Of a stretch of DNA of 64,000 nt, positions 31,491-61,806 are shown in pieces. Where the stretch lies: the NCBI GenBank assembly GCA_018816245.1, contig JAHIVW010000003.1:321453-385452 (forward strand). Reading direction: 5' to 3'. The notes below the pieces were generated by a model. That model was not told the DNA's origin and made no database searches. It saw only the letters and a list, made by a program, of their open reading frames with translations. The translations under genes and the position numbers were made by a program. Origin of the DNA: Nanobdellota archaeon. Its GTDB lineage: Archaea; Aenigmatarchaeota; Aenigmatarchaeia; QMZP01. Each line of letters starts with the position of its first letter. Position 1 is the first letter of the stretch.

Positions 31491-31604
31491 GCACAACCCC
31501 GGATGTGCTTTATTGGGTGCGAACGTTTATATCTGCTTTGATGGAGAGGAACATAACACCGTTATACATCCAAGACACCATATTTAAACCTTGATACCCA
31601 CAGC

Positions 31605-46463: not shown

Positions 46464-46478
46464 AATAACAATGTTATA
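46464..46478. repeat. Palindrome family copy 1 (AATAACAATGTTATA), flanked by direct ATTGAC repeats
   Basis: Arms ATAACA/TGTTAT. ATTGAC occurs at 46458-46463 and 46479-46484. Confidence 0.7.
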
Positions 46479-46494
46479 ATTGACCCAGACAAAC

Positions 46495-46502
46495 TTTAAA
46501 TA
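46495..46502 (+). promoter_or_regulatory. TATA-like TTTAAATA ahead of leader A
   Basis: The same octamer occurs at the equivalent place of unit B (complement of 58764-58771). Confidence 0.35.
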
Positions 46503-46529
46503 CTCATTGGTTCTATTACTGTCATCATA

Positions 46530-46890
46530 AAGTAGTGATTAATGATCATCAACCAATCGACTATCCCCTGGTGCGTCCACACGATGTGCCTTTCCCCATA
46601 CCAGAAACCTGTCCGTGACGGATCCGTCAGCGCTTCTTGAGCGCTGAAAACGCGCGGAGCGTGGTTTCGAGCACGGGAGCGGGAGCTCGGTTGACACCAT
46701 ACACTGACCGATGTGGGGCTGTCTTTCGTCGGTCTTGGGTTTTTACGCCTTCTGATTAGAAGGCAGGATACACGTTTGTGTATCCGCGTCCCGGGGGCGA
46801 CAGGATGGTGCACCAGAATGTCGTCCGTCTCAAGCCGGGACCGGATATTCTTCTCGCCAGTGGACTTGAGACATTGGAAAGGAGGCTCCG
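46530..46890 (+). other. Leader A: GC-rich, hairpin-packed non-coding region (candidate structured RNA or long 5' UTR)
   Basis: There is no credible ORF. Perfect hairpins or palindromes lie at 46616-46629, 46628-46646, 46747-46764 and 46766-46785. It ends in GGAAAGGAGG immediately before the ATG at 46891. Confidence 0.35.
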
Positions 46891-47148
46891 ATGTTGGAGT
46901 TTTTCGTCTATCTGTTCACAGTGGTTGGGATCATCTCGACCGCGATCTACGTCCTGCACAGGAAGGAGATCAACGCTGCTCTCAAGAAGCCTCAGGTTCC
47001 CCAGGGGTCGACGACACCTGCGACTCCTAAGGCACCCGAGGACCCGATGACGAAGCTCACGGAAACCCTTGAGCAAGTCGTCAAGCGGGTCGAGACGCTC
47101 GAGGCCACCGCCAAAAATCCGAAGAGCACAGGAGGTGGTGGATCATGA
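46891..47148 (+). CDS. Small membrane-anchored protein (85 aa)
   Basis: Strong SD (GGAGG 6 nt upstream). An N-terminal TM helix, then a Pro/Thr-rich linker and a helical tail. There is a 4-nt overlap with the next ORF. Confidence 0.45.
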   Translation: MLEFFVYLFTVVGIISTAIYVLHRKEINAALKKPQVPQGSTTPATPKAPEDPMTKLTETLEQVVKRVETLEATAKNPKSTGGGGS

Positions 47149-47816
47149 AGACCGTCATTATCGTTCTGGCAGTCCTCGCCATCAGCGCAGTGCTCTTCGT
47201 TGCCTTCGGCGGTGCCGGCCTCAACTTGGGGAAGGTCAACCCGAACCTGTTTGGTGGTGACAAGGCGCCTCTGACGAAGGGTACCCGGTATCCCCTGGCC
47301 AGCCATGTCAAGCTCTACGGAGCAGACATGGTGAACGAGGCGGAAGTGAAGACGATCTTGGAGTCCCGGGCGACCACCGACGACATCACGAACTTGCGAA
47401 AGCTCGTGATGAGGGGGGATCTGGACACAACTACTCGAGCAACAATCGAGAAGATGGTCGGCAGCTCCTACCTCCAGAACGCCAAGGATGCCACAAGCGT
47501 TGGGTTCGCGGTGACGGGGGACGACGGCAACCTAGTCGCCATCTCCGTTGGCGAACGCGACCCACTCCGCCTGATCGTCTACTACCTACTCGTCTCCTCC
47601 GACAAGATGATCGTCTATGATCCGGGAGAGGACGTGCCGGTAGGTACGAGGGGTGACCTTGGCATGGGCCTTATCACCCCGGCCGCCCGTCCTACGGCTG
47701 TCCGGTGGGTGAATGGTGCGGCCATATGTGGTACCCTGAACGCCGTCCCCGTGAGGGAGCATACGAGTATCTTCACCACAATTGACCTGACGACGGACAA
47801 GGTCAAGGGACCCTGA
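47145..47816 (+). CDS. Secreted/anchored hypothetical protein (223 aa)
   Basis: N-terminal hydrophobic helix MKTVIIVLAVLAISAVLFVAF. No motif recognised. The composition is GC-rich. Confidence 0.5.
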   Translation: MKTVIIVLAVLAISAVLFVAFGGAGLNLGKVNPNLFGGDKAPLTKGTRYPLASHVKLYGADMVNEAEVKTILESRATTDDITNLRKLVMRGDLDTTTRATIEKMVGSSYLQNAKDATSVGFAVTGDDGNLVAISVGERDPLRLIVYYLLVSSDKMIVYDPGEDVPVGTRGDLGMGLITPAARPTAVRWVNGAAICGTLNAVPVREHTSIFTTIDLTTDKVKGP

Positions 47817-47831
47817 TCTCGTCCCCAACCC

Positions 47832-47879
47832 GTCGGCGCGACACGCATGGAAAGTGCCGCGCCGACTTCTTTTCTTTTC
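47832..47879 (+). terminator. Hairpin plus T-run terminator-like element
   Basis: A 9-bp stem GTCGGCGCG/CGCGCCGAC (47832-47840 and 47858-47866) is followed by TTCTTTTCTTTTC (47867-47879). Confidence 0.5.
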
Positions 47880-47881
47880 AT

Positions 47882-47900
47882 AATATAACAGTGTTATATT
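47882..47900. repeat. Palindrome family copy 2 (AATATAACAGTGTTATATT, 9-nt arms)
   Basis: Perfect palindrome around a central G. It lies between convergent gene ends and is followed by GAAAGAAC. Confidence 0.8.
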
Positions 47901-47921
47901 TGAAAGAACAAAATAGAACGA

Positions 47922-50900
47922 TCAAACAATTTCTTGAAACGCCTTCAGGATTTTATCATCATCAAGAGGTGTACTTAACCACTGTTCGTACGCTTTCTTG
48001 CAATTATCCGGGTTTCCGCTATCTTCCAAACAACAGACACCAAGATCTCCTGAAGTTGTGGAAATGGTTTTGCATGCAAGACCTTCTAATGAATTACCAC
48101 CAAGATCGTATTTCGTTACTTGATCACAGTCTGCATCAGCACCTAGGAGTGTTTTGTCACATCCTCCTGCACCAAGACGACAGCCACTCTTCGTCTGCTC
48201 TTTGTACGCTTCGCAATATCCTGGTTTGCCAAAGAGTGAACTCAAACCAGTTATCCCATTCGACGACGTCCCGTTCCCAAAGTCCCCGCAAATGTTGTTG
48301 TTGCACGTCTGCCCGAACGCCGCATACGGGCAGTCGTTCGTCGTTTCGCAGCAGGTCACCCCGCCGAACTCCACCTTCTCGTTCACGGTCTTGGTCTGCG
48401 CAAAGATGTAGTCCGCGTGCGCCCGGACCTGGAACGTCTGCGTCGGGATGTTCTTGTTTCCAAAGGTAAATCGATCCTGGAAGTAGCAGAAGATCGTTGT
48501 CATGCCCTGGGGAATGTTTTCCGGTTTCCATGTATAGGTGGTCGCTGTTGCGCCAGGCGTCGTGGCAAACTTGTTGTTCGTGCAGCTCTTGATTTCCCCA
48601 AGCGCGTTGGGAATGATCAACTGGATCTGCGCGCTCTCGATCTGGGAGCTTGTGGACGCCTGGTATTTCTGCACAGGAACGAGCGACAAACCAATGAACA
48701 GCGGGGTCTTCTCCCGGATCGGTTGTTCAAGGGTGTCGAGGTTCAACTGGACCGGCGCATTGGTGAACGTCGATGCTTTCTTCGTTTGTGTGACAAGTTT
48801 TCCGTCCGCAACCAGGCGATCCCACTCGCCCTGGCTGATGAGCTCCACATCAATGCTGGAGTCGATTTGATACGGATACGTAACCGTGATGTTGAACGGA
48901 ATGTAGAAATTCCGAAGATCTATGTTTGATGTGATTCTCTTGGCACCAATGCCGCCAGCAAGTTTGTTCGCAATTTCGTCGAGGATGTGTTTTGCGCCAA
49001 TCATCTCCGAACAGGAAAACCCATTACTCTGGAAGAATCCCTGGCGGATATCCAGCTTGGTCATGGTTTCAGGAGTTGTGCCGCTGGGCTGCTGGTACGA
49101 GCCAACGGCACCGCCAGGGAAGGGAACGTAAGGGTAATGGACAACCTGATAGCAGGGTTCATCCTTGCTTGTTTGTTGCTGATGATCAACGCCGTCTTTG
49201 TCAATGCATACTTCTTCTCGTTCGGTAGCGTTGAACCCGAACTGGCTGATAGGAACCGTGACCCGGGTGAAGTCGATCTTCCCTCCTGAATCGGAAAACT
49301 TCATGTTGCTCGTTAACGTGACGTTGACATTGCTCGTCTCGAACGCCCCGGAATTCTTCAGTTTGTACACGATCGAGAAAGGTTGGCCTGGAAAGATCGG
49401 CGTGACGTCTATTTTGCCATCAAACTCCACACCGAGCGCTCCTTTTAACCCGGTCGTGGGATCAGTCGCATACGTGCCGTTGAGGATTTGTTGTGTATAT
49501 CCAATGGGATTCGTCAGTAAGAAGACTGCTTGGCCTAACGTGTTGCCAAGTTGCATCATCACTTCTGCTAATGGTTCTGTTAATTCAGCCACGCCGTTGT
49601 GCACGGTGGGCCACCACTGTCCTAACAGTCCGCTGCCAATGTCCTGCGATCCTGGTCCGATACCATAGATGACCGTGGCAGCGCCAAGCATGATCAGCCC
49701 TGCCTCTGGCCGGGCTGCCCGCGATGAAAAGAGTCCTGCGATAAATGAGACAAACCAGAAGTAGAGGAACGTTGCCCGAAGCGTGCCGGTGAGTTCCCAT
49801 CCAGGGCCAAAGGTGAAGAGTGGTGACACAACATTCAGCGCTCCGGAACCCAGCAAAGCAATAAACATCAAACCCACGAAAAGAGCTTTGTCGAACATTG
49901 CGCCAAATTCGCCAGTCGCTGCCTCTTCACTGCTCTCTGTTCCTTTCTTTGATCGCTCCACCGGCGGAACAGCGAAGAAGGCGAGCGCAAGGATTGCAAG
50001 AACATTCGAGTTGAAAATTGTCCCAAACAGGTAGAACGGAATCAAGTAACATCCGAGGATGAGAAATCTCATCAGTGATTCGATTCGTTCGCCAGGAATA
50101 TCAGGATCGTACGCTGTCTTGAGTGAGAAATACCCACCAAGACAAACAATGAGGAAGGCGATGTTGAACGGTCCTCCGAGCGCGCGGAACCCGAAGGCGA
50201 ACAGGGTGATCGCGGAAATCTTGAAAAAACTTCGCATCCAGCCGAACGTGGCATGGGATCGCCCGTCGCTTAACGGATTCATCATCTGGTACCAGATGTT
50301 TTTTCCTTTGTAGAGGTTGCCCTCTTGCGGCGCAGGGGTGACAAAATAGAAGCCAATTGCGAAAAATGCAAACATGAACCAGATCTGGCCGAGCAGGGCC
50401 GACATGGTGATCCCAAGCGCAGCAGCAGCAATTAAATAGAATCCTTTTTGGATGACGCTTTCCCCGTACCGGCGAACGGTCCAGGGTTTTTTGTACGATT
50501 CTTTCAGTTCTTTCAACTTGTCATCAATTTCTTCTTCGTATTGTTTGCTATCACGTTTGAATTGCTCTTCGATTTCCTTTCGCCGTTCATCTAAATCCTT
50601 TTTCGCATCTTGAAAATAATCTTGGGTAATATGACCTCCATTCAATTGATTCTGTAATTTGGTAAGTAAGCCATCAACGTTACGCAGTTCTCGATCACGA
50701 CGAACGCCTGGAAGATCATTCCATTTTTCATGGAGGTTTCTCGTTCTCTCAAGTAAAAGGTTCCGCTGTTGTTGGATATCAGCACGAAGATCCGGATCTG
50801 TTGTTCTTCGAAAACGGTTACCCAGCTCAATACCATGGGTTCGCAGCTGGTCGAGTTCTCTCTTTATTCGCTGCCGCGCAACAAGATGATCACGCTCTGC

Positions 50901-51518
50901 CTTGAGGTCTTTTCTTCGTTGCTTATACTGTTCCCGGACCGGGGCACCGGAGAAGATTCCCGCTGCCTTTCCCTTTTTTTGCTGCTTCTTCACTTGCGCA
51001 GGACTTAATTTTCTTCCTGCATCTCGAAACCCGCGTCGAGTTGCATCCCAATGAGTTGGACAACGCCTATTCAAACAAAAAAACGTCTCTTTTCCTTCAG
51101 TTGAAACGAGCGTGTGCAAGCGTTCCAAACCGCACCACGGACACACAATATCAGAAACCACGCTACTGATTTCGCCACGAAGGATGCGCACTTCGTGTCG
51201 TTTCTTTTCACGCTCCTTTCCTTCAGCACCATAAATGTCCTCGTAAATACCCTGAATTGCTTCCCGGAGTTCTTTCCCAGAAAGATGCCTTGTTTCTTCC
51301 CGAATGCGGCGATCAACTTGTCTGTTTTTTTCTTGCCGCTCAAAAATGGTCCATGCTGATTCTGGTCCCGGACCCGCAACACCAGGCGGCCAGTGGAAAT
51401 CTCCTTCAGGACAGACCACTTCAACCATCCGCTGGCCGGTTCCCGCGACCTTGGATTCGTAGATTTTGAGCTTGCCATGAGCTGAATTAACAGGACATTT
51501 GAGTTCTTTTTCAGCCAA
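47922..51518 (-). CDS. Giant membrane protein (1198 aa): cytoplasmic zinc ribbons plus coiled coil, polytopic core, large extracellular domain with Cys-rich tail
   Basis: The N-terminus has CP...CP and CPWC...C....CP motifs, followed by a long K/R/E-rich helical region. About ten hydrophobic segments lie in the middle. The C-terminal ~560 aa are beta-rich and end in a tail with about 13 Cys. Confidence 0.7.
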   Translation of the reverse strand: MAEKELKCPVNSAHGKLKIYESKVAGTGQRMVEVVCPEGDFHWPPGVAGPGPESAWTIFERQEKNRQVDRRIREETRHLSGKELREAIQGIYEDIYGAEGKEREKKRHEVRILRGEISSVVSDIVCPWCGLERLHTLVSTEGKETFFCLNRRCPTHWDATRRGFRDAGRKLSPAQVKKQQKKGKAAGIFSGAPVREQYKQRRKDLKAERDHLVARQRIKRELDQLRTHGIELGNRFRRTTDPDLRADIQQQRNLLLERTRNLHEKWNDLPGVRRDRELRNVDGLLTKLQNQLNGGHITQDYFQDAKKDLDERRKEIEEQFKRDSKQYEEEIDDKLKELKESYKKPWTVRRYGESVIQKGFYLIAAAALGITMSALLGQIWFMFAFFAIGFYFVTPAPQEGNLYKGKNIWYQMMNPLSDGRSHATFGWMRSFFKISAITLFAFGFRALGGPFNIAFLIVCLGGYFSLKTAYDPDIPGERIESLMRFLILGCYLIPFYLFGTIFNSNVLAILALAFFAVPPVERSKKGTESSEEAATGEFGAMFDKALFVGLMFIALLGSGALNVVSPLFTFGPGWELTGTLRATFLYFWFVSFIAGLFSSRAARPEAGLIMLGAATVIYGIGPGSQDIGSGLLGQWWPTVHNGVAELTEPLAEVMMQLGNTLGQAVFLLTNPIGYTQQILNGTYATDPTTGLKGALGVEFDGKIDVTPIFPGQPFSIVYKLKNSGAFETSNVNVTLTSNMKFSDSGGKIDFTRVTVPISQFGFNATEREEVCIDKDGVDHQQQTSKDEPCYQVVHYPYVPFPGGAVGSYQQPSGTTPETMTKLDIRQGFFQSNGFSCSEMIGAKHILDEIANKLAGGIGAKRITSNIDLRNFYIPFNITVTYPYQIDSSIDVELISQGEWDRLVADGKLVTQTKKASTFTNAPVQLNLDTLEQPIREKTPLFIGLSLVPVQKYQASTSSQIESAQIQLIIPNALGEIKSCTNNKFATTPGATATTYTWKPENIPQGMTTIFCYFQDRFTFGNKNIPTQTFQVRAHADYIFAQTKTVNEKVEFGGVTCCETTNDCPYAAFGQTCNNNICGDFGNGTSSNGITGLSSLFGKPGYCEAYKEQTKSGCRLGAGGCDKTLLGADADCDQVTKYDLGGNSLEGLACKTISTTSGDLGVCCLEDSGNPDNCKKAYEQWLSTPLDDDKILKAFQEIV

Positions 51519-51559
51519 GCAAACCGCCTCAGAGAATACTTGTCGTCAAGAGGTATAAA

Positions 51560-52678
51560 TCAGGCCTTCTGGAGGAGCACGGACGCGTCCCCAATTTCCC
51601 AGTTTCCGGTCCCCGAGAAGATCAGGGTGTTTTTCCCTTCCTGCACGTCAGCAGCGCCAAACGTCACGGTATTCTGCCCCTTCACCACGGACGACAGCTG
51701 GAATTCCTTGTCGTTCAGCGTGACCGATAGGGCACCGTTCTTGAGAATCTCATCAACATTGTAGACCAGCACCACATTAGCGTGCCCGTCCGCAACCTGC
51801 TTGGCCTGTTCCTGCGTCAAATCGAACGTCTTGGCCTTTGACAGCTCGCTCGTCAGGAGGAAGATGTTCAGCTGTCCGCCGCCAATCGTGGTCACGCCGG
51901 TCGAGGAAAAGGTGAGCGTGTTCGTCCCCACCTTGAGCGAAACATCAGTCAGCTCAAACGGGATCTCTTCCACTCCAGTTGGTGCACCAGAGAAGAGCTG
52001 CTGGCCATTCACATTGATTGCCAGGAGCCCGCTGCCTGACCCGAAGAATGACAACTCGCCCCGGTCAAAGGTGGCAAGCTCTGAGGAAAAGAGTTCGAAC
52101 GGGAAGATCCGGTCAGGACCATAATCAAGCTCCACTTTCACGTTCTTCAGCACGTAGACGGTCTGCGCCCAGAAGTACAGGCCAGGACCATCTGTGGTGA
52201 ATTCGAGGGTGTTCACGTTCTTGACCACGTCCTTGTCCAGAGTGAGCGACAGTGGCCCGGGGTTCGGATAGCCTGAATACACGGTCACGCCGTTCCACAG
52301 CACGTTCAGTTTCCCGTAATTGTTCGTGTCAAAGACTGAGAACGTGACGCGCACGTTCCGGGTTGTGTCTTCAAAGGCCTTGGGAACGACAATACTCATT
52401 TCCTCTTTCCGTTCGCCACTCAGCCCCTTGGTGACTTCAAGTTGCAAGATGCTCTTCAAGGTTTCGAACTGGGATTCCCCGACTGTGAAGGTTCCCAGGG
52501 TGAGTGACTTCGACGGGAGATTCTGGGAAAAGCCAACTGACCCGACGGTGAACGAGGCGATTGTGGTTTCCTCAACATCCTGGCCCGTGGTGGTCACGAA
52601 CACCGAGGCAACAGCAAAGACAACGAGAATGAGAATCGCGGCTGCGAGGATGTACATGAAGTCATCTGTCCCGCGCAT
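51560..52678 (-). CDS. N-terminally anchored secreted protein with three lectin/LamG-like repeats (372 aa)
   Basis: The start at the ATG at 52678 (MRGTDDFMYILAAAILILVVFAV) leaves a TATA-containing gap to the divergent pelota gene. Three segments follow the pattern L.V..NG...(15-25 aa)...G.NTL.F...G. Confidence 0.6.
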   Translation of the reverse strand: MRGTDDFMYILAAAILILVVFAVASVFVTTTGQDVEETTIASFTVGSVGFSQNLPSKSLTLGTFTVGESQFETLKSILQLEVTKGLSGERKEEMSIVVPKAFEDTTRNVRVTFSVFDTNNYGKLNVLWNGVTVYSGYPNPGPLSLTLDKDVVKNVNTLEFTTDGPGLYFWAQTVYVLKNVKVELDYGPDRIFPFELFSSELATFDRGELSFFGSGSGLLAINVNGQQLFSGAPTGVEEIPFELTDVSLKVGTNTLTFSSTGVTTIGGGQLNIFLLTSELSKAKTFDLTQEQAKQVADGHANVVLVYNVDEILKNGALSVTLNDKEFQLSSVVKGQNTVTFGAADVQEGKNTLIFSGTGNWEIGDASVLLQKA

Positions 52679-52730
52679 ACTATTCTTTTTTGTGAAGAAT
52701 CCATATAAAGCGGCACGGTGAAGCCTTCTC

Positions 52731-53753
52731 ATGATCGTCACGAAGAAGGACCTGAAGGCAGGGACGCTCTCGGTCACCTTGCAGGCTGCGGACGATCTGT
52801 GGCACCTCTCCCATATCATGGAGCCCGGGGACCTCGTGACCGCGAAGACCCTCCGGACGACCACGATCAAACAGGGCGCTGAATTCAAGAAAGGGGACAA
52901 GGTGCCGATGATCTTGACAATCAGGCTCGAGAAGCTTGAGTTCACCGAGGGGTCTGAGGCACTCCGACTTTCTGGAACAATCGAGCAAGGACCAGAAGAC
53001 GTCCAGCTGCATTCGTACCATACGCTGACCATTGAGGTGCGGTCCCACCTGACGATCCAGAAATCATGGAACGGCTACCAGCTCGACCGGATCGAGCGGT
53101 CGCGGATCAAGCAGCCGCTGCTCGTTGTTGTTGCGATCGACCGGGACGAGGCAACGGTTGCTCTTCTACGGGAATCAGGAATTGAATGGAAAGCAAGTCT
53201 GCAGTGCAAAGGAAAGAAGGACATCAAGGACGAAGGTGATCGTGAAGCATTCCACAAACAGATTGCCGCGGTGTTGCAAGAGCAGCCTGCTGACGTCAAG
53301 GCAATTGTGCTCGCAGGTCCGGGATTTGAGAAAGACCACGTCCAGGACTACTTGAAAAAAAATACTCCCGAGCTCGGCGAAAAAACCGTTACGGAAAAAG
53401 CCGCAGATGCTGGACGCCACGGGGTTCAAGAAGTCGTGCAGCAGAGCTCGCAGCGCATCCTGAAGGAGACGCGGATCGCGAAAGAAACCGGCTACTTGAA
53501 GATTTTCTTCACGGAGTTGCGGAAAGAGGGACTCGTAGTGTACGGACCGAAGGAAACGCAAAAGGCGCTCGAGTACGGCGCAGTTGAATTGTTGCTGGTG
53601 TCGGAACACAAAATCAAGGACTTTGACGCGCAGTTGCAGCAAGCAGAGAAAACAGGTGCGACCATCAAGTTCGTGTCCGCAGATCACGAAGCAGGGGAGC
53701 AGTTCTTGGCGCTTGGTGGTATTGGCGGGATTTTGCGGTACAAGGTGCACTAG
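52731..53753 (+). CDS. pelA: Pelota (aPelota/Dom34) ribosome rescue factor
   Basis: MIVTKKDLKAGTLSVTLQAADDLWHLSHIMEPGDLV and an eRF1-like C-terminal domain. Confidence 0.93.
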   Translation: MIVTKKDLKAGTLSVTLQAADDLWHLSHIMEPGDLVTAKTLRTTTIKQGAEFKKGDKVPMILTIRLEKLEFTEGSEALRLSGTIEQGPEDVQLHSYHTLTIEVRSHLTIQKSWNGYQLDRIERSRIKQPLLVVVAIDRDEATVALLRESGIEWKASLQCKGKKDIKDEGDREAFHKQIAAVLQEQPADVKAIVLAGPGFEKDHVQDYLKKNTPELGEKTVTEKAADAGRHGVQEVVQQSSQRILKETRIAKETGYLKIFFTELRKEGLVVYGPKETQKALEYGAVELLLVSEHKIKDFDAQLQQAEKTGATIKFVSADHEAGEQFLALGGIGGILRYKVH

Positions 53754-54331: not shown

Positions 54332-54382
54332 ACATCACCCTTACACAAACGCTAATAAATTCTTCCGTCGTACAGAAACGCC

Positions 54383-55120
54383 ATGAAAGTTATTTTTCTC
54401 GCCGGTGGCTACGGCACACGGTTGAAGGCGCTTTCGTATAATACACCAAAGGCGCTCCTCCCGCTTGGGGGCAAGCCGATCCTTGATCACCTGCTGGCAA
54501 AGGTCCTGCCACTCAAACCGACCAGGATCTACGTCCTGACCAACAAACGGTTCGCTGCGACGTTCGAGCAGTGGAATGACACAGTCCCATCGAGCGTCGA
54601 CGTCCGGATCGTGGTCGAGCCCGGGACCACAGAAGAGAAGAAGTTAGGCGCCATCGGCGGCCTGGGAAACGTCATTGAACAGGAACGGCTCGCGGATGAC
54701 CTTCTCGTTCTGGCAGCGGACAACTACTTCACTTGCGACCTGACGCAGATAGCTGCGGCCTTCCAGCAGCGGAAGGCGCCCGTGGTCGGCCTCTATGATG
54801 TCAAGGATCGGACGAAAGCGAGCAACTATGGCGTCGTGTCCGTGGACCGCTATGGCCGGATCATCGGCTTCGCCGAGAAGCCCATGCAGCCGAACAGCAC
54901 CCTGGTCTCCACGGGGATCTACTTCCTCCCGCGGGAGGTCCTGGCCTCGGTGCTCGTCTACCTCAGGCAGGGGAAGAACCCTGACGCCTTCGGGAACTTC
55001 ATTTCCTGGCTCTCCGTTGATCGGGAGGTCGTGGGCTACACCCTTCCCAAGGGAGCAGCCTGGTTTGATATCGGTTCCCCGGAGACCTACGAGGCAGCCA
55101 AAGCTGCTACTGGCCCCTGA
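54383..55120 (+). CDS. Sugar-1-phosphate nucleotidylyltransferase
   Basis: LAGGYGTRLKALSYNTPKALLPLGGKPILDH pyrophosphorylase signature. Confidence 0.88.
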   Translation: MKVIFLAGGYGTRLKALSYNTPKALLPLGGKPILDHLLAKVLPLKPTRIYVLTNKRFAATFEQWNDTVPSSVDVRIVVEPGTTEEKKLGAIGGLGNVIEQERLADDLLVLAADNYFTCDLTQIAAAFQQRKAPVVGLYDVKDRTKASNYGVVSVDRYGRIIGFAEKPMQPNSTLVSTGIYFLPREVLASVLVYLRQGKNPDAFGNFISWLSVDREVVGYTLPKGAAWFDIGSPETYEAAKAATGP

Positions 55121-55162
55121 TCAACCGTGCTTTCTTAAAACTGATTTCTGTTAGATCACCCC

Positions 55163-57172
55163 ATGGCGGAGATGGCTCAGGTGCAGGACGATAAACCGAT
55201 GTACCTCGGCCAGTTCAAAGAATTCTTCCACCAGCGCTACAAGGAAGAGCTGACCGAGGCAGCCGCAACCGGCGAGTCGTTTGCCATTGATTTCGCGGTC
55301 TTGGAGAAGTTTTCTCCGACTCTAGCAGAGGCCTTGTTGAAAACTCCTGATGAGATTCTCCCTATTATCAAGGAAGCGGTGAAACAGATTGACTTGCCGC
55401 AAAGCCTGCCGGTGCACGTGACGAACTTGCCGGACCACGCAACAATCGGCATCCGGGATTTGCGGTCAGTGCACATTGGCCAATTCGTCCAGGTGGAAGG
55501 GGTTATCCGGCGGGCGAGCGAGATCCGTCCGGAACTCATGAGTATGATTTACGAGTGCACGGATTGTAACATGAAGATTACTGTTGACCGGCGTGGAACG
55601 TTCATTGGTCGTCCGTTTCAATGCGACTGCGGCAACCGGAAGTTTACGGAATCATCGAAACAGTTAGTGGACATGCGGTGGCTCACCATCGAAGAACCGT
55701 TTGAATTGACAGAAGGGGAGCGACCGAGCCAGGTGACCGTTGTGTTGAAAGATGATTTAGTGAACATGTACGGACGGCGGATCACCGAACCAGGAAACCG
55801 GCTGCGATTGACCGGCGTATTACGCGATATCCCGAAAGGAAAGCAATGGAGTGTGAAGCTTGATTTTTATCTCGATGCGGATCACGCAGATCCAACAGAG
55901 ATCGGCTGGGAACGGGTTCAGGTCTCGTCTGAAGAAGAAGAAGAAATCAAGAATCTGGCAAAGGATCCGCAAATATTTGAAAAACTTATTGGATCGCTTG
56001 CGCCGTCGCTGTACGGCATGGAAGAGATCAAGGAAGCGATTATCCTGCAATTTTTCGGTGGCGTGCCGCGGACGCTTGCAGACAAAACCAAGTTCCGAGG
56101 AGACATTCATGTTTTACTTTTGGGCGATCCAAGTTCGGGAAAGAGTCAACTTCTGAAGCTCGCGCCGCAGATTGTGCCGCGCGGAAGGTATGTTTCCGGA
56201 AAAGGTGCGACGGCCGTTGGGTTGACCGCAGGGGTAACAAAAGATGAACAGTTCATGGGTGGCTGGGTACTCGAAGCTGGTGCCATGGTGTTGAGCAACA
56301 AGGGGCTGTTGTCTATTGACGAGTTCGAAAAAATGTCTATTGAAGATCAGGTTGCAATGCATGAAGCAATGGAGCAAGGTTCTGTAAGTATCGCAAAAGC
56401 GTCAATTGTCGCAACCCTGCCTGCGCAAACGTCCGTATTGGCTGGCGGGAACCCGAAGTTCTCACGGTTCGATCCATACATGCCTATTTCGAAACAGATC
56501 ACAATTCCAGATACGTTGTTGTCGCGATTTGATTTGCGATTCATTCTGCGGGATGTCCCTGATGCAGAAAAGGACACGCTCTTGGTTGATCATGTACTGA
56601 CGGCACGGGAGGATGACCAGGACACTGCCGTCCCGCGAATCAGTACGGCCCTTGTTCGTAAGTATGTTTCGTACGCACGGGAAAAGGTGAAACCGAAACT
56701 TACCAAAGAAACCGGGAAGCTGTTGCGGAACTTCTACATCAAGATGCGACGGAAGGCCGAGGGCGGGAACGCACCGGTCCCGATTACGTTGCGGCAGTTC
56801 GAGGCCATGATTCGGTTGTCAGAAGCAGCGGCAAAGGTGCAATTATCCGAGTTGGTGAAACCAGAGCACGCGCAGCGGGCGATCAGGCTGATGCGGTATT
56901 CGCTGCAACAGGTCGGGTACGATCCCGAGACAGGAACGATCGATATTGACAAGGCCGAGGGGGCGCAGACGAGCTCTGCTGACCGCTCCAAGATCCGGGT
57001 GATCACGGACATCATCAACAAGCTGTCCGAGAGGAAGAAGGAGATCGCCGTGGGGGAGATCATTGAAGAGGCGCGGAAGGCCGGGATTGAAGGGGCCGAG
57101 GAGTACGTGGAGAAACTCACGAGAGAGGGGATGCTGTTCGAGCCGAGTCCGGGGTATGTGCAGAAGGTGTGA
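55163..57172 (+). CDS. mcm: MCM replicative helicase
   Basis: Zn motif CTDCN...CDCG, Walker A LLLGDPSSGKSQLL, Walker B IDEFEKM and arginine finger SRFDL. Confidence 0.96.
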   Translation: MAEMAQVQDDKPMYLGQFKEFFHQRYKEELTEAAATGESFAIDFAVLEKFSPTLAEALLKTPDEILPIIKEAVKQIDLPQSLPVHVTNLPDHATIGIRDLRSVHIGQFVQVEGVIRRASEIRPELMSMIYECTDCNMKITVDRRGTFIGRPFQCDCGNRKFTESSKQLVDMRWLTIEEPFELTEGERPSQVTVVLKDDLVNMYGRRITEPGNRLRLTGVLRDIPKGKQWSVKLDFYLDADHADPTEIGWERVQVSSEEEEEIKNLAKDPQIFEKLIGSLAPSLYGMEEIKEAIILQFFGGVPRTLADKTKFRGDIHVLLLGDPSSGKSQLLKLAPQIVPRGRYVSGKGATAVGLTAGVTKDEQFMGGWVLEAGAMVLSNKGLLSIDEFEKMSIEDQVAMHEAMEQGSVSIAKASIVATLPAQTSVLAGGNPKFSRFDPYMPISKQITIPDTLLSRFDLRFILRDVPDAEKDTLLVDHVLTAREDDQDTAVPRISTALVRKYVSYAREKVKPKLTKETGKLLRNFYIKMRRKAEGGNAPVPITLRQFEAMIRLSEAAAKVQLSELVKPEHAQRAIRLMRYSLQQVGYDPETGTIDIDKAEGAQTSSADRSKIRVITDIINKLSERKKEIAVGEIIEEARKAGIEGAEEYVEKLTREGMLFEPSPGYVQKV

Positions 57173-57190
57173 GGGTTTTGGTTTTCCTAT

Positions 57191-57205
57191 TATAACAGTG
57201 TTATA
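57191..57205. repeat. Palindrome family copy 3 (TATAACAGTGTTATA)
   Basis: Perfect copy between the convergent mcm and rnp1 ends. It has a T-rich left flank and an A-rich right flank (AAGAAAAAAGAAAAGAAC). Confidence 0.8.
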
Positions 57206-57224
57206 TTAAGAAAAAAGAAAAGAA

Positions 57225-57581
57225 CTACCAATTGATATGCCGTTTCTTGATCCGGTCTTCTGGGCGCCCTACGAGCAATTTACCATCAACCCGAACCCAC
57301 TGCCCTGCGGGCACGCGGAAGGAGAAGGTGCTCTGGTCCTTGACGTAGTTCTTGAGCTGACCTTCGATGTCCACGGTGAGGGTGTTCCGGGACTCATCAA
57401 CGACAGTACCTGAATCCCCGATGAAGTTGTGGTTGGTTCGATCAAGCATGCGGACGCCCAAGCCGACGAGCTCGTGCTGGAGGATGTGCTCGGGGATGCG
57501 CAGGGCGGCGGCGATGGCAGCTCGCTTCTCTTTCTTCGGAATAGCCATTTTTGCGACCATAGTATTCGACGGTGCTAACAT
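57225..57581 (-). CDS. rnp1: RNase P protein component 1 (Rpp29/Pop4)
   Basis: LVGLGVRMLDRTNHNFIGDSGTVVDESRNTLTV...VRVDGKLLVGRPEDRIKKR. The start may be the internal MVAKM. Confidence 0.85.
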   Translation of the reverse strand: MLAPSNTMVAKMAIPKKEKRAAIAAALRIPEHILQHELVGLGVRMLDRTNHNFIGDSGTVVDESRNTLTVDIEGQLKNYVKDQSTFSFRVPAGQWVRVDGKLLVGRPEDRIKKRHINW

Positions 57582-57613
57582 GAGAGCCTTCTATTGGGAG
57601 CGGAGATTTATAA

Positions 57614-57655
57614 GATAACGGTGTTAATTTGGTATGATGATATAACGGTGTTATA
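57614..57655. repeat. Palindrome family copies 4a (GATAACGGTGTTAAT, degenerate) and 4b (TATAACGGTGTTATA)
   Basis: Copy 4a is at 57614-57628 and copy 4b at 57641-57655. Copy 4b is followed by TTGAAAAGAAC. Confidence 0.7.
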
Positions 57656-57656
57656 T

Positions 57657-57698
57657 TGAAAAGAACCCAGAGCACGCGAGAAGGTCTCACGCACTCTG
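57657..57698 (-). terminator. Imperfect hairpin plus TTCTTTTC terminator-like element after the 57720-58418 ORF
   Basis: On the minus strand the sequence reads CAGAGTGCGTGAGACCTTCTCGCGTGCTCTG, then GGTTCTTTTC, then palindrome 4b. Confidence 0.4.
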
Positions 57699-57719
57699 AG
57701 TTGTCGGCGACGTGGCCGG

Positions 57720-58418
57720 CTAGTCCTCGTCTTCGAGGTCCGTCTCAGGGATCGGAGGCATCATGAAGTGCACTGTATGGGATCTGATATGCTGCTCCAC
57801 GAAGTGTGAGAACAGGGCGATGCCGCACCTGAGATCGCGCTCCCTGAGCAGCTGGATGATTCCCGCGAAGATCAGTTGCCCCGTGGCGTCGGGGTGCCGC
57901 ATGATCTGCTGGATGTCCCGGCATGCCTCCTCGCTGAGCTGACGCTGGTTCCCTCGCTCCATGTCGCCGACGGACTTGAAGAGATCAGTGAGGTTGATCG
58001 GGAGCGGAGCGTACGGCGCCAGGAGCTCGGTCATGAGGGAGAACTCGGCTACCTCATCAAGGATGTCTGGAGTAACACCGAGGCAGTGGTTCACGATGGT
58101 GGGTAGTGTTGCTCCCTCACGCCTGTATTTATCCACCATACCTGTCACACGCTTCCTGAGTTCGTTCCGCTTGTCGCTCCAGTCGGCGCGATTGAATCCC
58201 TCCACTTGAATGGGAAGCTCGTTCTCAGTGCGTTTCTTGAGGCCGACCGTTGAGAACCAGATGCTGAGGAGGTGCTCTGATTCCTCGGTATGGGCGTCAT
58301 CGCCGTTGACGACCTCTGCCGCGGCCTGTTCCCAAGACCCGTTCTGCCAGATGTCTTCGGTTCTGATGATCAGGTCGAGTTCGAGCTCTCTCTCACGTAA
58401 CGTTTTCTTCGCTGCCAT
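57720..58418 (-). CDS. Hypothetical acidic protein (232 aa)
   Basis: Long ORF with a purine-rich GGGAGGAAGAAAGGAAA upstream of the ATG. No motif recognised. Confidence 0.5.
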   Translation of the reverse strand: MAAKKTLRERELELDLIIRTEDIWQNGSWEQAAAEVVNGDDAHTEESEHLLSIWFSTVGLKKRTENELPIQVEGFNRADWSDKRNELRKRVTGMVDKYRREGATLPTIVNHCLGVTPDILDEVAEFSLMTELLAPYAPLPINLTDLFKSVGDMERGNQRQLSEEACRDIQQIMRHPDATGQLIFAGIIQLLRERDLRCGIALFSHFVEQHIRSHTVHFMMPPIPETDLEDED

Positions 58419-58763
58419 TTGGCGTTTCCTTTCTTCCTCCCAGAACAGAAAACCCGGCAGTGTAGGAGGGAGTGCTGCCGGTGTTGTGTGATTAGTTCAG
58501 AATAGGTTGATTCTCGTTGGGAAGACGAGCGTCACTATAAGGGTGTCTTTGGGGGTAAACGCGGATTTCGTCGGGGGTTTCATTAATTGGCCTCCTCTCC
58601 AATGCGAGACTGTCGAAAGACAGTCTCAAGACGACAAAATTCGTCCACCACTCGCGCTCCCGCTCCTCTTGGTGACGTGCGTGCATTTCTGGATTCTGCA
58701 ACGTTCTTGCGGAACGTGGGAACTGGTGATGTGAGTTGTGAACTTACGAGTTAGTAGTGGAAT
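58419..58763 (-). other. Leader B: GC-rich hairpin-rich non-coding region homologous to leader A
   Basis: Hairpins at 58454-58481 and 58606-58627 (9-bp stem; GAAA loop on the plus strand, TTTC in the leader sense). Three collinear blocks are identical to leader A (see findings). The only ORF here (58492-58701) has no counterpart in leader A. Confidence 0.35.
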
Positions 58764-58771
58764 TATTTAAA
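58764..58771 (-). promoter_or_regulatory. TATA-like TTTAAATA (minus strand) ahead of leader B
   Basis: The plus strand reads TATTTAAA. This is the same octamer and relative position as in unit A. Confidence 0.35.
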
Positions 58772-58851
58772 CCTTATCCCGGCCCGTTCCTTGGCAAACC
58801 ATTAAATGTCCAGATGATTCTTAGGAAAGAGGTACCAGAAAGAACTCTTAG

Positions 58852-58865
58852 TATAACAGTGTTAT
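58852..58865. repeat. Palindrome family copy 5 (TATAACAGTGTTAT)
   Basis: Preceded by AGAAAGAAC. Its last bases contribute the AT of the helicase ATG at 58864. Confidence 0.75.
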
Positions 58866-61806
58866 GGCCCCCTTCCCCCTCTTCAAAAAGCAACTCGGAA
58901 CCCTCGCCCAGGAGCGCTTCTCTTCCCCGACCGAGGTCCAGCAGGCGACGTTCCCGCTTATCCACGAAGGCAAGAACGCTCTCGTGATCGCAGAAACCGG
59001 CTCTGGAAAAACCGAAGCTGTCCTCCTTCCCTTCTTCGACCGCATGCTCCGCGACCGCGGACGCCCGTTCCAGCTCCTCTATATCACCCCGTTGCGAAGC
59101 CTCAACCGCGACCTGCTTTCCCGCGTGCTCTGGTGGGCCAACCGCCTTGACTTCACGGTCTCGGTCCGCCACGGCGACACGAGCCAGTACGAGCGCTCCA
59201 TGCAGGCAGCCAACCCCGCAGACATGCTCATCGTCACTCCCGAAACCCTCCAGGCCATCCTGGTAGGAAAGGTCCTCCGCACCCACCTTGCGAACGTCCG
59301 CTTCGTGGTCATTGACGAAGCCCACGAACTTCCAGACAGCAAGCGCGGCACCCAGCTTGCGGTCGGTCTGGAACGACTCAAAGCGCTCATCACGGAATAC
59401 GGCAACCCGTCCCCGCAACTCGTCGGCATCTCTGCAACCGTCGGCTCCCCAACAATCGTTTCCTCGTTTTTGGCCGGCAGCTCTGACCCGCTCACGGTCA
59501 TCACTGCAGACCGGCACAAGGAATTCTCCATCACGGTCGATGAGCCGGTTCCCACCCAGGATGATCACGAAGTCGGCAACCGCTTGTACGTCGGCCCCGG
59601 CGTCGCGGCGCGCATCCGCACCATGCACAATCTGATCAAAACACATGCACCAGTGCTCAGTTTCACCAACACAAGAGAAGCAGCAGAGGTCCTCGCTTCG
59701 CGTCTGAAAACACTTGACCCTGAACTCGGTGTTGAAACGCATCATTCTTCACTTTCACGAGACGTGCGCATCAGTGCAGAACAACGGTTCAAGGACAATG
59801 AACTCGCTGCCTTGATCTGTACCTCAAGTCTGGAATTAGGCATCGACATCGGTCACGTTGATCTCGTGCTCCAATACCTTTCCCCACGCCAGGCAGTCAA
59901 GCTCGCGCAACGCGTGGGTCGTGCTGGTCACCGACATGATAAGGTTTCACGCGGCGTTGTTCTGACACAAGACACCGAGGACGGCTTCGAAGCAGCAGTG
60001 ATTGCCAAGCGGACCCTGGAAGGCTGGGTGGAGCCAACCATCCTCCGCGAACAATCGCTCGATGTTCTTGCACACCAGCTTATCGGGCTCACCCTTGAAC
60101 GAAAGGACATCACCTTCCTCGATGCGTACACGATTCTCAAACGAGCCTACCCGTACCGGAACTTGTCCGCAGACGACTTGTTCGATGTCGCCAGATTCAT
60201 GATGCGATTACGACTCCTCCGCATCGAGGATCCTGCGCATCCCATGCCGTGGCAGCGACCAAAGACGCAAGAAGATCTTGACGCGCAACACCACATCAAG
60301 CCGCTTGAAGAGAAACCAACCGTCTTCACGCCGCGGCCAGCACTCAAGAAGAAAAATGATTTAACCCTCCACCGAAAGCTCCCAAGCTGGGAATACTACT
60401 ACACGAATCTCTCGACCATTCCGGACAGCAAGAACGTGCAGCTGTTCGACGTCGTGAATCACGCCCCGGTCGGGTCCCTGGACGCGGAATTCGTTTCTCT
60501 GTACGCACAACCTGGTGCAACGATTATCACCAAAGGAACTCCCTGGCGCGTGTTAGAAACCCGTGATCACCGCGTCAGCGTGGAGCCGGCATCCGGCATC
60601 AAGGCAGCCATTCCTGCATGGCAAGGTGAACTCATTCCTGTTCACTTCGAGATTGCCCAGGACGTTGGCAAACTCCGGCGGCTGATTGCAGAAACACTTG
60701 ACAACAACGAAGATCCGATTTCATTTCTAACAACAACCTATCCGGTCACCAAACAAATCGCCAAGGACATGGTGTCCTTGATCAAGAAACAGCGAAAGAA
60801 GGGGATCCTTCCTGACGACAAGACAATTGTGATTGACCGCTGCGAGGACAAGCTGGTCATCCACTTCTGTGGCGGGTCGTTGGTCAACGATACCCTCGGT
60901 CGCGCACTCTCTGTCTTGTTAACCGGAAAGATCGGCACCATTGGCCTGCAAACCGATCCCTATCGTATCATTCTTACCGTGTCACCAGAATATGCAGAAC
61001 GCATAAAAACTGAGTTAACCAAGCTCACCACAAAAACGTTCCAGGATGTGCTTCACCTTGCCCTTGAAAAAACTGATTTGTTCTTCCTCCGCTTTGCGCA
61101 CGTTGCGAAACGGTTCGGCATCATTTCCCGCGATGCAGACATCATGAAAGCGCAGCTCCGGCGCATTGTCCAGCGGTTCGACGGCTCCCCGGTGTATCGG
61201 GAAACATTCAACGAGCTCCGTGACAAGTTCGATGTTGATCAAGCAATCGACGTCTTGCAAAACATCCGCGAAGGAACGTATCCGATCATCATCAATGAAG
61301 GTATGAGTCCGCTCGCACGGTTCGGTGTCTCCCGGAAAACCGAACTCGTGGCAACAGAAAAACCAGAATCAGAAATATTTGCGCTCTTCAAGAAACGGTT
61401 GTTAGGAACACGGATCGGGTTGCTGTGCTGCCAATGCAACACCTGGGGCACGATCACCACCGCAGAAGAGGTTTCACAGCAACCGGTGTGCAAGAAATGC
61501 CAGGCACGGCTCATCGCGATTGTCCCTCGTGACCGTTACACCTTCGCGCATTCCTTACTCGAAAAAAACCGACAGGGAAAACCGCTTTCTGGAGAAGAAA
61601 AGAAAGAAGTGGAAACCATGTTCGCGTCTGCAAGCCTCGTGATCGACCACGGCTATGAAGCAGTTCGTGCGCTCGCCGGTCGCGGCCTCGGGCCGAAAAC
61701 CGCAGCACGCGTGCTCTCCAAACTCCTCCATGGCGACGACCTGCTGCACGACATCCTCGACGCAGAGCGCCAGTTCGTGAAGACCAGGCAATTCTGGAAG
61801 GGGTAG
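58864..61806 (+). CDS. lhr: Lhr-like large ATP-dependent DEAD/DEAH-box helicase
   Basis: PTEVQQATFPLIHEGKNALVIAETGSGKTEA, VIDEAHEL, SATVG and VGRAGH motifs. The long C-terminal domain has a CCQC...CKKC zinc motif. Confidence 0.92.
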   Translation: MAPFPLFKKQLGTLAQERFSSPTEVQQATFPLIHEGKNALVIAETGSGKTEAVLLPFFDRMLRDRGRPFQLLYITPLRSLNRDLLSRVLWWANRLDFTVSVRHGDTSQYERSMQAANPADMLIVTPETLQAILVGKVLRTHLANVRFVVIDEAHELPDSKRGTQLAVGLERLKALITEYGNPSPQLVGISATVGSPTIVSSFLAGSSDPLTVITADRHKEFSITVDEPVPTQDDHEVGNRLYVGPGVAARIRTMHNLIKTHAPVLSFTNTREAAEVLASRLKTLDPELGVETHHSSLSRDVRISAEQRFKDNELAALICTSSLELGIDIGHVDLVLQYLSPRQAVKLAQRVGRAGHRHDKVSRGVVLTQDTEDGFEAAVIAKRTLEGWVEPTILREQSLDVLAHQLIGLTLERKDITFLDAYTILKRAYPYRNLSADDLFDVARFMMRLRLLRIEDPAHPMPWQRPKTQEDLDAQHHIKPLEEKPTVFTPRPALKKKNDLTLHRKLPSWEYYYTNLSTIPDSKNVQLFDVVNHAPVGSLDAEFVSLYAQPGATIITKGTPWRVLETRDHRVSVEPASGIKAAIPAWQGELIPVHFEIAQDVGKLRRLIAETLDNNEDPISFLTTTYPVTKQIAKDMVSLIKKQRKKGILPDDKTIVIDRCEDKLVIHFCGGSLVNDTLGRALSVLLTGKIGTIGLQTDPYRIILTVSPEYAERIKTELTKLTTKTFQDVLHLALEKTDLFFLRFAHVAKRFGIISRDADIMKAQLRRIVQRFDGSPVYRETFNELRDKFDVDQAIDVLQNIREGTYPIIINEGMSPLARFGVSRKTELVATEKPESEIFALFKKRLLGTRIGLLCCQCNTWGTITTAEEVSQQPVCKKCQARLIAIVPRDRYTFAHSLLEKNRQGKPLSGEEKKEVETMFASASLVIDHGYEAVRALAGRGLGPKTAARVLSKLLHGDDLLHDILDAERQFVKTRQFWKG

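Follow-up and report, generated by a model that had tools for sequence, protein, structure and literature searches.

A palindrome conserved at predicted replication origins of two DPANN phyla and dispersed across an aenigmatarchaeal genome is a candidate recognition site of a dimeric DNA-binding protein

Background

A single DNA-binding factor can serve a replication origin and many promoters at once, as exemplified by bacterial Fis, IHF, CtrA and DnaA with its boxes, and by yeast Abf1. In archaea, the effect of a regulator typically follows its position: a site upstream of BRE/TATA leads to activation and a site downstream of TATA to repression. TrmBL1/Tgr, which acts on the TGM palindrome (TATCAC-N5-GTGATA), is a position-dependent regulator of this kind, with a coherent sugar-metabolism regulon and no known site at the origin.

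The closest described system is the ucm element of Sulfolobus/Saccharolobus, an essential word in the middle of the DUE that the protein UBP recognizes (Dhanaraju et al. 2025, Nat Commun, PMC12141716). Binding of UBP extends to 329 sites, most of them intergenic, at genes from disparate families. The protein has been reported only from Sulfolobales and Desulfurococcales; the same authors, who name Fis and IHF as well, ask explicitly whether analogous origin factors exist in other archaeal lineages (PMC12141716). The ucm word is TTATACAAAC (bioRxiv 10.64898/2026.08.15.744077).

Palindrome copies in the window

The palindrome, with the consensus TATAACA-N-TGTTATA, is a perfect dyad of 15-19 nt. 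The window, that is, the whole 64-kb stretch of DNA analyzed here, contains six good copies and one degenerate copy, against 0.3 expected, all outside confident genes, which bears out the claim of a sequence-only reading of this DNA that a near-identical palindrome recurs between genes. A pattern search of the window recovered matches with 0-2 mismatches at 46464-46478, 47884-47898, 57191-57205, 57641-57655 and 58852-58866; shuffling yields an expectation of 0.31 matches, and the 12 strand-matches observed were reached in 0 of 100 shuffles. The degenerate copy at 57614-57628, with 3 mismatches, was found by direct reading. The same reading saw no copy in the first 46 kb and described a recurrence within 12.4 kb; however, CATAACACCGTTATA occurs at 31552-31566 between divergent genes, and the 12.4-kb cluster is not special, its five copies giving a contig scan statistic of p = 0.075. 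The features are as follows.

31552..31566, no strand: extra palindrome copy CATAACACCGTTATA, in a divergent-gene spacer
46464..46478, no strand: palindrome copy AATAACAATGTTATA, from the pattern search
47884..47898, no strand: perfect palindrome, non-promoter site at convergent gene ends
55163..57172, plus strand: MCM replicative helicase gene, with a palindrome 26 nt past its stop
57191..57205, no strand: perfect palindrome, non-promoter site with T-rich and A-rich flanks
57225..57581, minus strand: RNase P subunit p29 gene, of the leaderless type; two palindrome copies precede its TATA box
57614..57628, no strand: degenerate copy GATAACGGTGTTAAT, adjoining the p29 TATA box (57606-57614, minus strand)
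57641..57655, no strand: palindrome TATAACGGTGTTATA, lying 27 nt farther upstream of p29 than the degenerate copy
58852..58866, no strand: palindrome TATAACAGTGTTATG, its final three bases being the Lhr start codon
58864..61806, plus strand: Lhr-type large helicase gene, the most conserved non-origin target of the palindrome

The contexts of these copies differ. The copy at 31552-31566 is flanked by a DJ-1/PfpI gene on the minus strand, with its ATG about 69 nt away, and by a gene of 143 aa on the plus strand, 52 nt away. To the right of the copy at 46464-46478, at a distance of 16 nt, is the TATA-like box TTTAAATA (46495-46502); to the left of this copy, on the minus strand, are a TTTATAAG box and a 118-aa gene (ATG 46386). 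Two copies lie between convergent genes: that at 47884-47898, between the stops of a 223-aa gene (47816) and a 1168-aa gene (47922), is bordered by TTCTTTTCTTTTC at 47867-47879 and GAAAGAAC at 47902-47909, and that at 57191-57205 is within the 52 nt that separate the stops of MCM (57172) and p29 (57225). Upstream of p29 (ATG 57581), the center of the degenerate copy is 40 nt from the ATG, the canonical promoter position, and that of the second copy 67 nt; the latter is directly past the T-rich end of a 232-aa gene (stop 57720), with GAAAAGAAC at 57658-57666. The association of the palindrome with GAAA(A)GAAC is genuine, given that five of the eight intergenic copies of this word (106 copies in the genome) abut a palindrome, four of these in the window, but it marks a subfamily of sites and is not a general part of the motif.

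Abundance and conservation of the word

Far from being local to 12 kb, the palindrome is spread over the entire 886-kb Aenigmatarchaeota (DPANN) assembly at an average of about one site per 18 kb: 49 sites are within one mismatch of the consensus, and 26 of these match it exactly. The location where it is most conserved, at the replication origin, is on another contig. Three control palindromes of equal composition have, in the same genome, 0 exact copies and 1-3 within one mismatch. Of the 49 sites, 45 are in the intergenic 9% of the genome and the remaining four in doubtful short ORFs, a tally that relies on crude gene calls (longest open reading frames), so that some context classes are possibly wrong.

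The search of relatives which that reading had called for extends the word across the phylum: exact copies are present in 39 of 41 genomes of the order, with a reversed control near 0, and in 104 of 151 genomes of a phylum-wide sample. Among orc1/cdc6 loci, 55 of the 67 from Aenigmatarchaeota and Nanohaloarchaea have the word at 70-370 nt upstream of the gene, compared with 0 of 13 from Archaeoglobi and Methanosarcinales. The number of copies per genome varies from 1 to about 50 among close relatives, and this genome and a relative, G027, differ in most of their dispersed positions, so that these sites are perhaps dispensable or opportunistic.

Position at the predicted origin

The origin is here a predicted one, delineated by ORB boxes, an AT-rich core and adjacency to cdc6. 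In this genome, two ORB-like boxes bracket an AT-rich stretch that contains the palindrome, at distances of 45 and 40 nt from their cores, and the common spacing across the 28 measurable loci is ORB, ~46 nt, palindrome, ~39 nt, ORB, with the palindrome at most 10 nt from the midpoint between the ORB boxes in 17 of the 28. This mid-ORB position in the unwinding region is the one that characterizes a ucm/UBP-type element. Three genomes (G027, G031 and G034) carry arrays of 3-5 copies beside cdc6, accompanied by canonical ORB boxes and by an AT-rich core. Where the copy number is low, as in G005 and G021, the sole exact copy is about 1 kb from the origin-linked XRE gene. Dispersed palindromes have an ORB partner no more often than expected by chance. 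The palindrome is not itself an ORB or mini-ORB, the kind of box that Orc1 reads with its winged helix and ISM, being a different word that lacks the TTCCAnnGGAAA core and the G-rich tail.

Promoter geometry and target genes

Of the 49 site centers, 12 fall 40-45 nt before an ATG, compared with 2.7 expected and with 0 of 5000 randomizations reaching 12, and 21 are found at 40-61 nt (8.4 expected). TATA centers peak 25-26 nt before the ATG, which implies that the genes are of the leaderless type and that the palindrome covers roughly -49 to -35. The 40-45 nt class is thus directly upstream of the BRE/TATA of leaderless genes, the fixed position relative to BRE/TATA that is expected of a transcription factor operator. 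The functions of these genes are unrelated housekeeping ones (the targets include the thermosome, ribosomal proteins, RtcB, archease, prefoldin, CTP synthase, a tRNA synthetase, topoisomerase IA, Rrp4 and p29), and among these disparate targets we found no functionally coherent, conserved regulon with a known regulator. Origin aside, only Lhr and a thiolase-like gene are upstream targets common to this genome and G027. A palindrome 5-100 nt before the Lhr ATG occurs in 9 of 30 relatives, against about 0.5 expected by our estimate from site densities; of the 28 loci of relatives with a readable MCM 3' end, that of G027 alone also has a palindrome just past the MCM stop. About 8-10 sites in this genome, including two in the window, lie between convergent genes, which precludes a promoter role; such sites are nearly absent in G027 (1 of 46).

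Most copies, being upstream of a TATA box or past a T-rich tract, are outside transcription units, and the RNA fold of the palindrome core is worth only -0.9 kcal/mol, which argues against an RNA hairpin or intrinsic terminator. The suggestion in the sequence-only reading of a site for a DNA- or RNA-binding protein is thus supported in its DNA-binding part, on the strength of the phylum-wide conservation, the concerted variant described below, and the fixed position relative to ORB and TATA boxes, whereas the RNA hairpin is unlikely.

A concerted variant and the putative binding protein

In one genome, G022, TATAAC..GTTATA is absent and is replaced by eight TATTAC..GTAATA sites, two at the origin and six dispersed, with the identical change in both half-sites. 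Such concerted change at the origin and dispersed sites suggests that a single putative trans factor, a symmetric protein, is the reader of all the sites, and the perfect dyad of 15-19 nt implies a dimer. Three candidates for the binder each failed a test: Orc1-1, whose winged helix in G022 is unchanged at the DNA-reading positions although the palindrome changed; the Orc1-2 paralogue, absent from roughly half of those genomes in which the origin palindrome is retained; and the syntenic origin-linked XRE protein, whose recognition helix is invariant in G022.

Discussion

From the observed distribution, conservation, concerted variation and geometry of the sites, we infer the binding of a protein, the sign of regulation and a role in replication. 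TATAACA-N-TGTTATA is probably the recognition site of one conserved dimeric DNA-binding protein, with an ancestral role at the origin and later recruitment to promoters. The binder would be a symmetric, sequence-specific protein of Aenigmatarchaeota and Nanohaloarchaeota, and its ancestral, near-universal site would be in the unwinding region of the orc1/cdc6-adjacent origin, approximately midway between the ORB boxes, where the protein probably acts as an accessory factor, like UBP on the Sulfolobus ucm. In some lineages, this genome being among the most extreme, dozens of intergenic positions appear to have acquired the site. The majority of copies are directly upstream of the BRE/TATA of leaderless housekeeping genes, so that activation or promoter insulation is favored under the usual archaeal position rule, and often the same copy is also directly past the T-rich end of the gene before it. 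In the case of the Lhr helicase gene, the site would be at or after the transcription start, a presumed repressor position, and for the minority between convergent gene ends, the bound protein could serve as a boundary or roadblock.

The palindrome could instead be the operator of an ordinary global transcription factor, with cdc6 as the most conserved member of the regulon and no role in replication initiation. The many sites with fixed promoter geometry fit this explanation, as do the recurrent targeting of Lhr and the XRE gene, the perfect dyad typical of dimeric helix-turn-helix regulators, and the variable distance to the cdc6 ATG (70-370 nt). However, at the origin, it is the position relative to the ORB boxes (~46 and ~39 nt) that is fixed, not that relative to the cdc6 start; the site is inside the AT-rich core between these boxes; arrays of 3-5 copies stretch across the origin in some genomes; the targets lack functional coherence; and convergent-gene sites also exist. 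We regard an operator without an origin function as a possibility, albeit not a likely one.

A termination or boundary element, in which a protein bound past T-rich tracts keeps transcription from reading through into closely packed neighboring genes and into the origin, promoter proximity being a by-product of short gaps, appears very unlikely to us. Flanks facing the incoming gene are indeed T-rich (0.43 compared with a background of 0.27), two sites in the window and about eight more are between convergent ends with T-rich/A-rich arms, and GAAA(A)GAAC abuts five sites. Yet, between tandem genes, the spacing to the following start codon is sharply peaked whereas that to the preceding stop is broad (3-89 nt), convergent sites almost vanish in G027, most convergent gaps and gene ends have no palindrome, and the RNA fold is too weak. 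Hardly tenable is a selfish or recombinational repeat, REP/MITE-like or an attachment or boundary site of mobile cassettes as the sequence-only reading had also entertained: copy number does differ strongly between related genomes, and one pair of copies, 2.3 kb apart, has 13 of 14 flank bases in common, but flank identity is otherwise little above the composition null, the unit is just 15-19 nt and lacks both terminal repeats and target duplications, the pair of supposed units in the window has no homologous leader in common, the same word keeps a fixed place at the origin across two phyla, including Nanohaloarchaea, and nothing supports a cassette boundary.

Within the favored reading, a recognition site of one dimeric protein at origins and promoters, a bolder scenario can be envisaged, speculative and on balance unlikely, in which this single dyad factor, unrelated to UBP, couples replication to growth in host-dependent archaea. 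The factor would occupy the symmetry center of the origin, where two MCM rings load. Its other targets would be the gene of the repair helicase Lhr and a set of housekeeping promoters that each lineage can tune. Besides driving growth genes, the dispersed sites would draw the factor away from the origin, comparable to the titration of DnaA by datA, and thereby set the time when initiation is possible. This would be an independent invention of the UBP logic.

To our knowledge, ucm/UBP in Sulfolobales is the only characterized archaeal origin accessory element. The palindrome offers a concrete, sequence-defined candidate for an origin element in two DPANN phyla, of which Nanohaloarchaea have cultivable members, and would be the first defined cis-regulatory element for Aenigmatarchaeota, a phylum with essentially uncharted gene regulation. 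The perfect dyad is well suited to DNA-affinity capture of the binder, G022 is a natural specificity variant that can validate candidate proteins, and the Lhr site together with the fixed-geometry promoters provides a handle on activation versus repression. Origin-prediction tools would also gain a diagnostic word for these phyla.

Comparison with known systems

The sharing of sites between a replication origin and many growth-gene promoters is reminiscent of Fis, IHF, CtrA, DnaA and Abf1, but these belong to other domains of life, with unrelated proteins and motifs, so that the analogy is one of logic only. The resemblance to TrmBL1/Tgr lies in the palindromic boxes and in the contrast between the class at about -42 and the Lhr class, which fits the position rule; the spacing, unlike the N5 of TGM, is N3. 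With the ORB and mini-ORB boxes of Orc1/Cdc6, the palindrome has in common that it is a conserved repeat in a cdc6-adjacent origin, but canonical ORB boxes (TTCCAnnGGAAA with the G-rich tail) are separately present in the same origins. The closest parallel is ucm/UBP: in both cases, the unwinding region of known or predicted Orc1-type origins has a short conserved word halfway between the ORB boxes, and this word recurs at many mostly intergenic sites beside functionally unrelated genes. The two also differ. The ucm is 10-11 nt long, asymmetric and read by a UBP monomer, whereas the palindrome is a dyad of 15-19 nt, with no match to the ucm consensus; a quarter of the palindrome sites are fixed upstream of BRE/TATA, which has not been reported for UBP; and the number of copies ranges from 1 to ~50 between relatives, compared with 329 UBP peaks in one species. 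Taken together, these likenesses and differences suggest that the palindrome is best viewed as a putative variant of the ucm/UBP kind of element.

Genome-wide distribution of the palindrome

The palindrome TATAACA-N-TGTTATA is a motif of the entire genome, of which the copies in the window are a sample. In the 886-kb assembly (six contigs), the core TATAAC-N3-GTTATA occurs 26 times without mismatches, 49 times with up to 1 mismatch, and 75 times with up to 2 mismatches, compared with 0, 1-3, and 14-30 occurrences, respectively, of three control palindromes equal to it in composition. The weight matrix yields a motif longer than the core, tR-TATAACA-N-TGTTATA-Ya. At up to 1 mismatch, 45 of the 49 sites are intergenic and the remaining four lie inside doubtful short ORFs, in a site classification that rests on crude gene calls (91% coding). 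Folded as RNA, the core yields only -0.9 kcal/mol, and the flanks are unrelated among sites, apart from a T-rich side. Only C4:84263 and C4:86540 resemble the product of a recent duplication in place: the two copies are 2.3 kb apart and agree at 13 of 14 flank bases (tatcaccaagaaa), with the left flank ttccctaa also in common.

The window contains the following copies and neighbouring features.

31552: palindrome
46464: palindrome, TATAACAGTGTTATA-like
46495-47145: about 650 nt from a TATA-like box (TTTAAATA) to a 223-aa ORF, with short overlapping ORFs only; possibly a long leader, or else a non-coding RNA
47832-47866: GC-rich hairpin (cgtcggcgcg...cgcgccgac) followed by TTCTTTTCTTTTC, 3' of the 223-aa gene; looks like a bacterial-type intrinsic terminator, although the host is archaeal
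47884: palindrome, TATAACAGTGTTATA-like
47922-51428, minus strand: 1168-aa protein without a Pfam match; a palindrome lies directly past its T-rich 3' end
51560-53032, minus strand: 490-aa ORF without a Pfam match
52731-53753, plus strand: Pelota/eRF1-like gene, its start overlapping the 490-aa ORF by about 300 nt; probably either the start of one of the two or the 490-aa ORF itself is miscalled
57191: palindrome, TATAACAGTGTTATA-like
57614: palindrome, degenerate
57641: palindrome, TATAACAGTGTTATA-like
58852: palindrome, TATAACAGTGTTATA-like, its final three bases being the ATG of the Lhr helicase gene

The sequence-only reading had claimed at least six copies, all intergenic and clustered within 12.4 kb, with none seen by eye in the first 46 kb. 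It had read six of them directly. Five of these are recovered by a pattern search of the window at 0-2 mismatches each (0.31 matches expected from shuffled sequence), the one at 57614 is apparent on direct reading, and every window copy indeed lies between confident genes. Among the proteins encoded in the window are MCM, RNase P p29, the Pelota/eRF1-like protein, and Lhr. The copy at 31552 had, however, been overlooked, and the cluster does not stand as a local feature: its five good copies form the densest stretch of the contig, yet the scan p is 0.075 at the genome-wide density, so that there is no local island. The motif GAAA(A)GAAC, which had been seen near most copies, does adjoin 5 of the 49 sites, four of them in the window; it forms part of the T-rich tracts that face incoming genes. 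A hairpin, CCCGAAGGCCGGCCG, is common to two palindrome neighbourhoods, with two copies in all. The idea that palindromes delimit two homologous cassettes in the window was rejected, BLAST having detected no significant similarity between the leaders of these units; nor does the similar minus-strand stretch 58418-58771 have significant sequence in common with 46495-47145.

Promoter and gene-end context

TATA-like boxes in this genome peak 25-26 nt upstream of start codons, which implies that most genes are of the leaderless type. Many of the dispersed sites are sharply positioned: 12 of the 49 have their centres 40-45 nt upstream of an ATG (2.7 expected; 12 was reached in 0 of 5000 randomisations), and 21 have them 40-61 nt upstream of one (8.4 expected). 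In the aligned promoters, the palindrome is followed after 3-7 nt by TATA and, about 23 nt later, by the ATG, and by this spacing, the palindrome abuts the BRE. Where divergent genes are separated by a short gap, a single central palindrome is present for both sides. In the window, the p29 promoter has a degenerate copy centred at -40, as is the rule, and a perfect copy 27 nt farther upstream. Two palindromes 31 nt apart (C3:63450 and C3:63481) precede the thermosome gene, and pairs or triplets at 27-33 nt spacing are found also at the window p29 gene and in the related genome G027 (C1:444982-445058), a spacing that suggests cooperative binding on one helix face.

The site flank toward the incoming gene is T-rich (0.43 vs 0.27). 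About 10 sites fall in gaps where two genes converge, 47884 and 57191 among them; in G027, this is the case for 1 of 46. The genes preceded by a site at promoter distance have unrelated housekeeping functions.

Genes of the genome under study with a palindrome at promoter distance
Protein folding: thermosome (two upstream copies), prefoldin
Ribosome: proteins S15, L23, L1
tRNA and RNA processing: RtcB, archease, Trp/Tyr-tRNA synthetase, Rrp4, RNase P p29
Nucleic acids and nucleotides: CTP synthase, topoisomerase IA
Other: DRG GTPase, SAH hydrolase, diphthamide and wyosine synthesis enzymes, transporters

The palindrome at the predicted origin

A second context is the replication origin, which is a prediction in all counts that follow. 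By alignment query, we gathered 80 cdc6 loci from named assemblies, 67 from Aenigmatarchaeota and Nanohaloarchaea and 13 from Archaeoglobi and Methanosarcinales. In 55 of the 67, among them the locus of Nanohaloarchaea archaeon SG9, whose genome is complete, the palindrome precedes cdc6 by 70-370 nt; it does so in none of the 13. In three relatives (G027, G031, and G034), 3-5 palindromes are arrayed in a long AT-rich gap adjoining orc1/cdc6, together with canonical origin recognition boxes (ORBs) such as CTCCATAGGAAACGATGGGGTGG. The cdc6 gene of the genome under study, on contig C6, has several ORB-like boxes in its upstream gap, two of which flank a 74-nt AT-rich stretch with AATAACAATGTTATA no more than 3 nt from its midpoint. 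Among the 28 loci with ORB cores on both sides, the palindrome commonly lies about 46 nt past the first ORB and about 39 nt ahead of the second, and in 17 it is within 10 nt of the ORB-ORB midpoint. Given this spacing and the variable distance to cdc6, the element is fixed relative to the ORB boxes and not to the cdc6 start. The dispersed palindromes of this genome have no ORB partner above chance.

A conserved arrangement runs from cdc6 through the origin to the gene of a 224-aa metallophosphoesterase and then that of a 243-aa XRE-type regulator (C6:5917-8812 here; loci L037-L103 in relatives), with the metallophosphoesterase gene within 2.5 kb of cdc6 in 26 of the 67 loci.

Conservation and a concerted change of the site

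In the search of related genomes that the sequence-only reading had proposed, 39 of the 41 genomes from the order contain the exact word, and the reversed control word is nearly absent there; in a phylum-wide sample, 104 of 151 genomes contain it. The usual number of exact copies is 1-5 per genome (0-5 in nanohaloarchaeal genomes), and a few lineages reach 10-33, with the genome under study (25 exact) near the top. Few positions are common to this genome and G027: upstream in both are the sites at the origin pair, at Lhr, and at a thiolase-like gene, and downstream in both is the one at MCM. The site past MCM is not a conserved feature, being found only in these two genomes among 28 relatives' loci with a readable MCM 3' end. 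The window MCM (669 aa) is free of inteins; in seven relatives (G004, G007, G011, G016, G017, G018, and G038), the MCM match falls in two blocks within open frames of 1071-1669 aa, which suggests one or two inteins. Upstream of Lhr, a palindrome occurs 5-100 nt 5' of the ATG in 9 of 30 genomes (two families), compared with about 0.5 expected by our own estimate from order-wide site densities, frequently in the interval from the likely TATA box to the start codon.

One relative, G022 (L304-L310), has no TATAAC..GTTATA at all and instead carries eight copies of TATTAC-NNN-GTAATA, two at the origin and six dispersed, the substitution being identical in both half-sites and at every locus. Such a concerted switch would be expected if the sites co-evolved with one symmetric protein. 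That the copies are a mobile repeat, or that they serve separate functions site by site, is hard to square with it. G022 is a natural specificity variant, usable for checking any candidate binding protein.

Candidate binding proteins

In 33 of the 67 loci, from both phyla, the 243-aa XRE-type HTH_3 gene (C6:8081-8812 here) is located within 2.5 kb of cdc6; its own promoter carries a palindrome in 6 of 30 relatives. In genomes whose exact palindrome is single, such as G005 and G021, that copy and this origin-linked gene are about 1 kb apart. As the binder, the XRE protein is not supported: its recognition helix, SSVVSDYESGRR, is invariant even in G022, where the site changed. Its PDB matches are generic helix-turn-helix ones, and a homologue search returns close relatives only, titled 'putative transcriptional regulators'. 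Orc1-1 is not supported either: its single change specific to G022, Cys to Ser, falls outside both the recognition helix and the wing. Nor is Orc1-2, which is missing from about half of the genomes of the order, although these keep the origin palindrome. About 21 of the 41 genomes of the order, this one included (343 aa; C4:177092-178120), have a second Orc1/Cdc6 paralogue that is shorter, and the others lack it.

Proposed roles and the nearest known system

The data fit a protein-binding DNA element whose ancestral site would have been inside the origin, with later, lineage-specific expansion to promoters. In archaea, sites upstream of BRE/TATA favour activation, and those at or after the start favour repression, as with TrmBL1/Tgr, Ptr2, and TFB-RF1. 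By this rule of position, a factor bound at the sites centred near -42 may activate or insulate, whereas one bound at the Lhr site may repress.

The closest published system is the Sulfolobus pair of the mid-origin element ucm and its binding protein UBP. The ucm element lies midway between ORB2 and ORB3, and origin firing depends on it; UBP has 329 further sites, mostly intergenic, contacts MCM, and modulates growth-phase expression (PMC12141716). The words differ, that of ucm (TTATACAAAC) being asymmetric, and UBP is a monomer, whereas the symmetry of the palindrome implies a putative dimer. Unlike ucm/UBP, the element described here has many sites sharply positioned upstream of BRE/TATA, and its copy number varies strongly among relatives.
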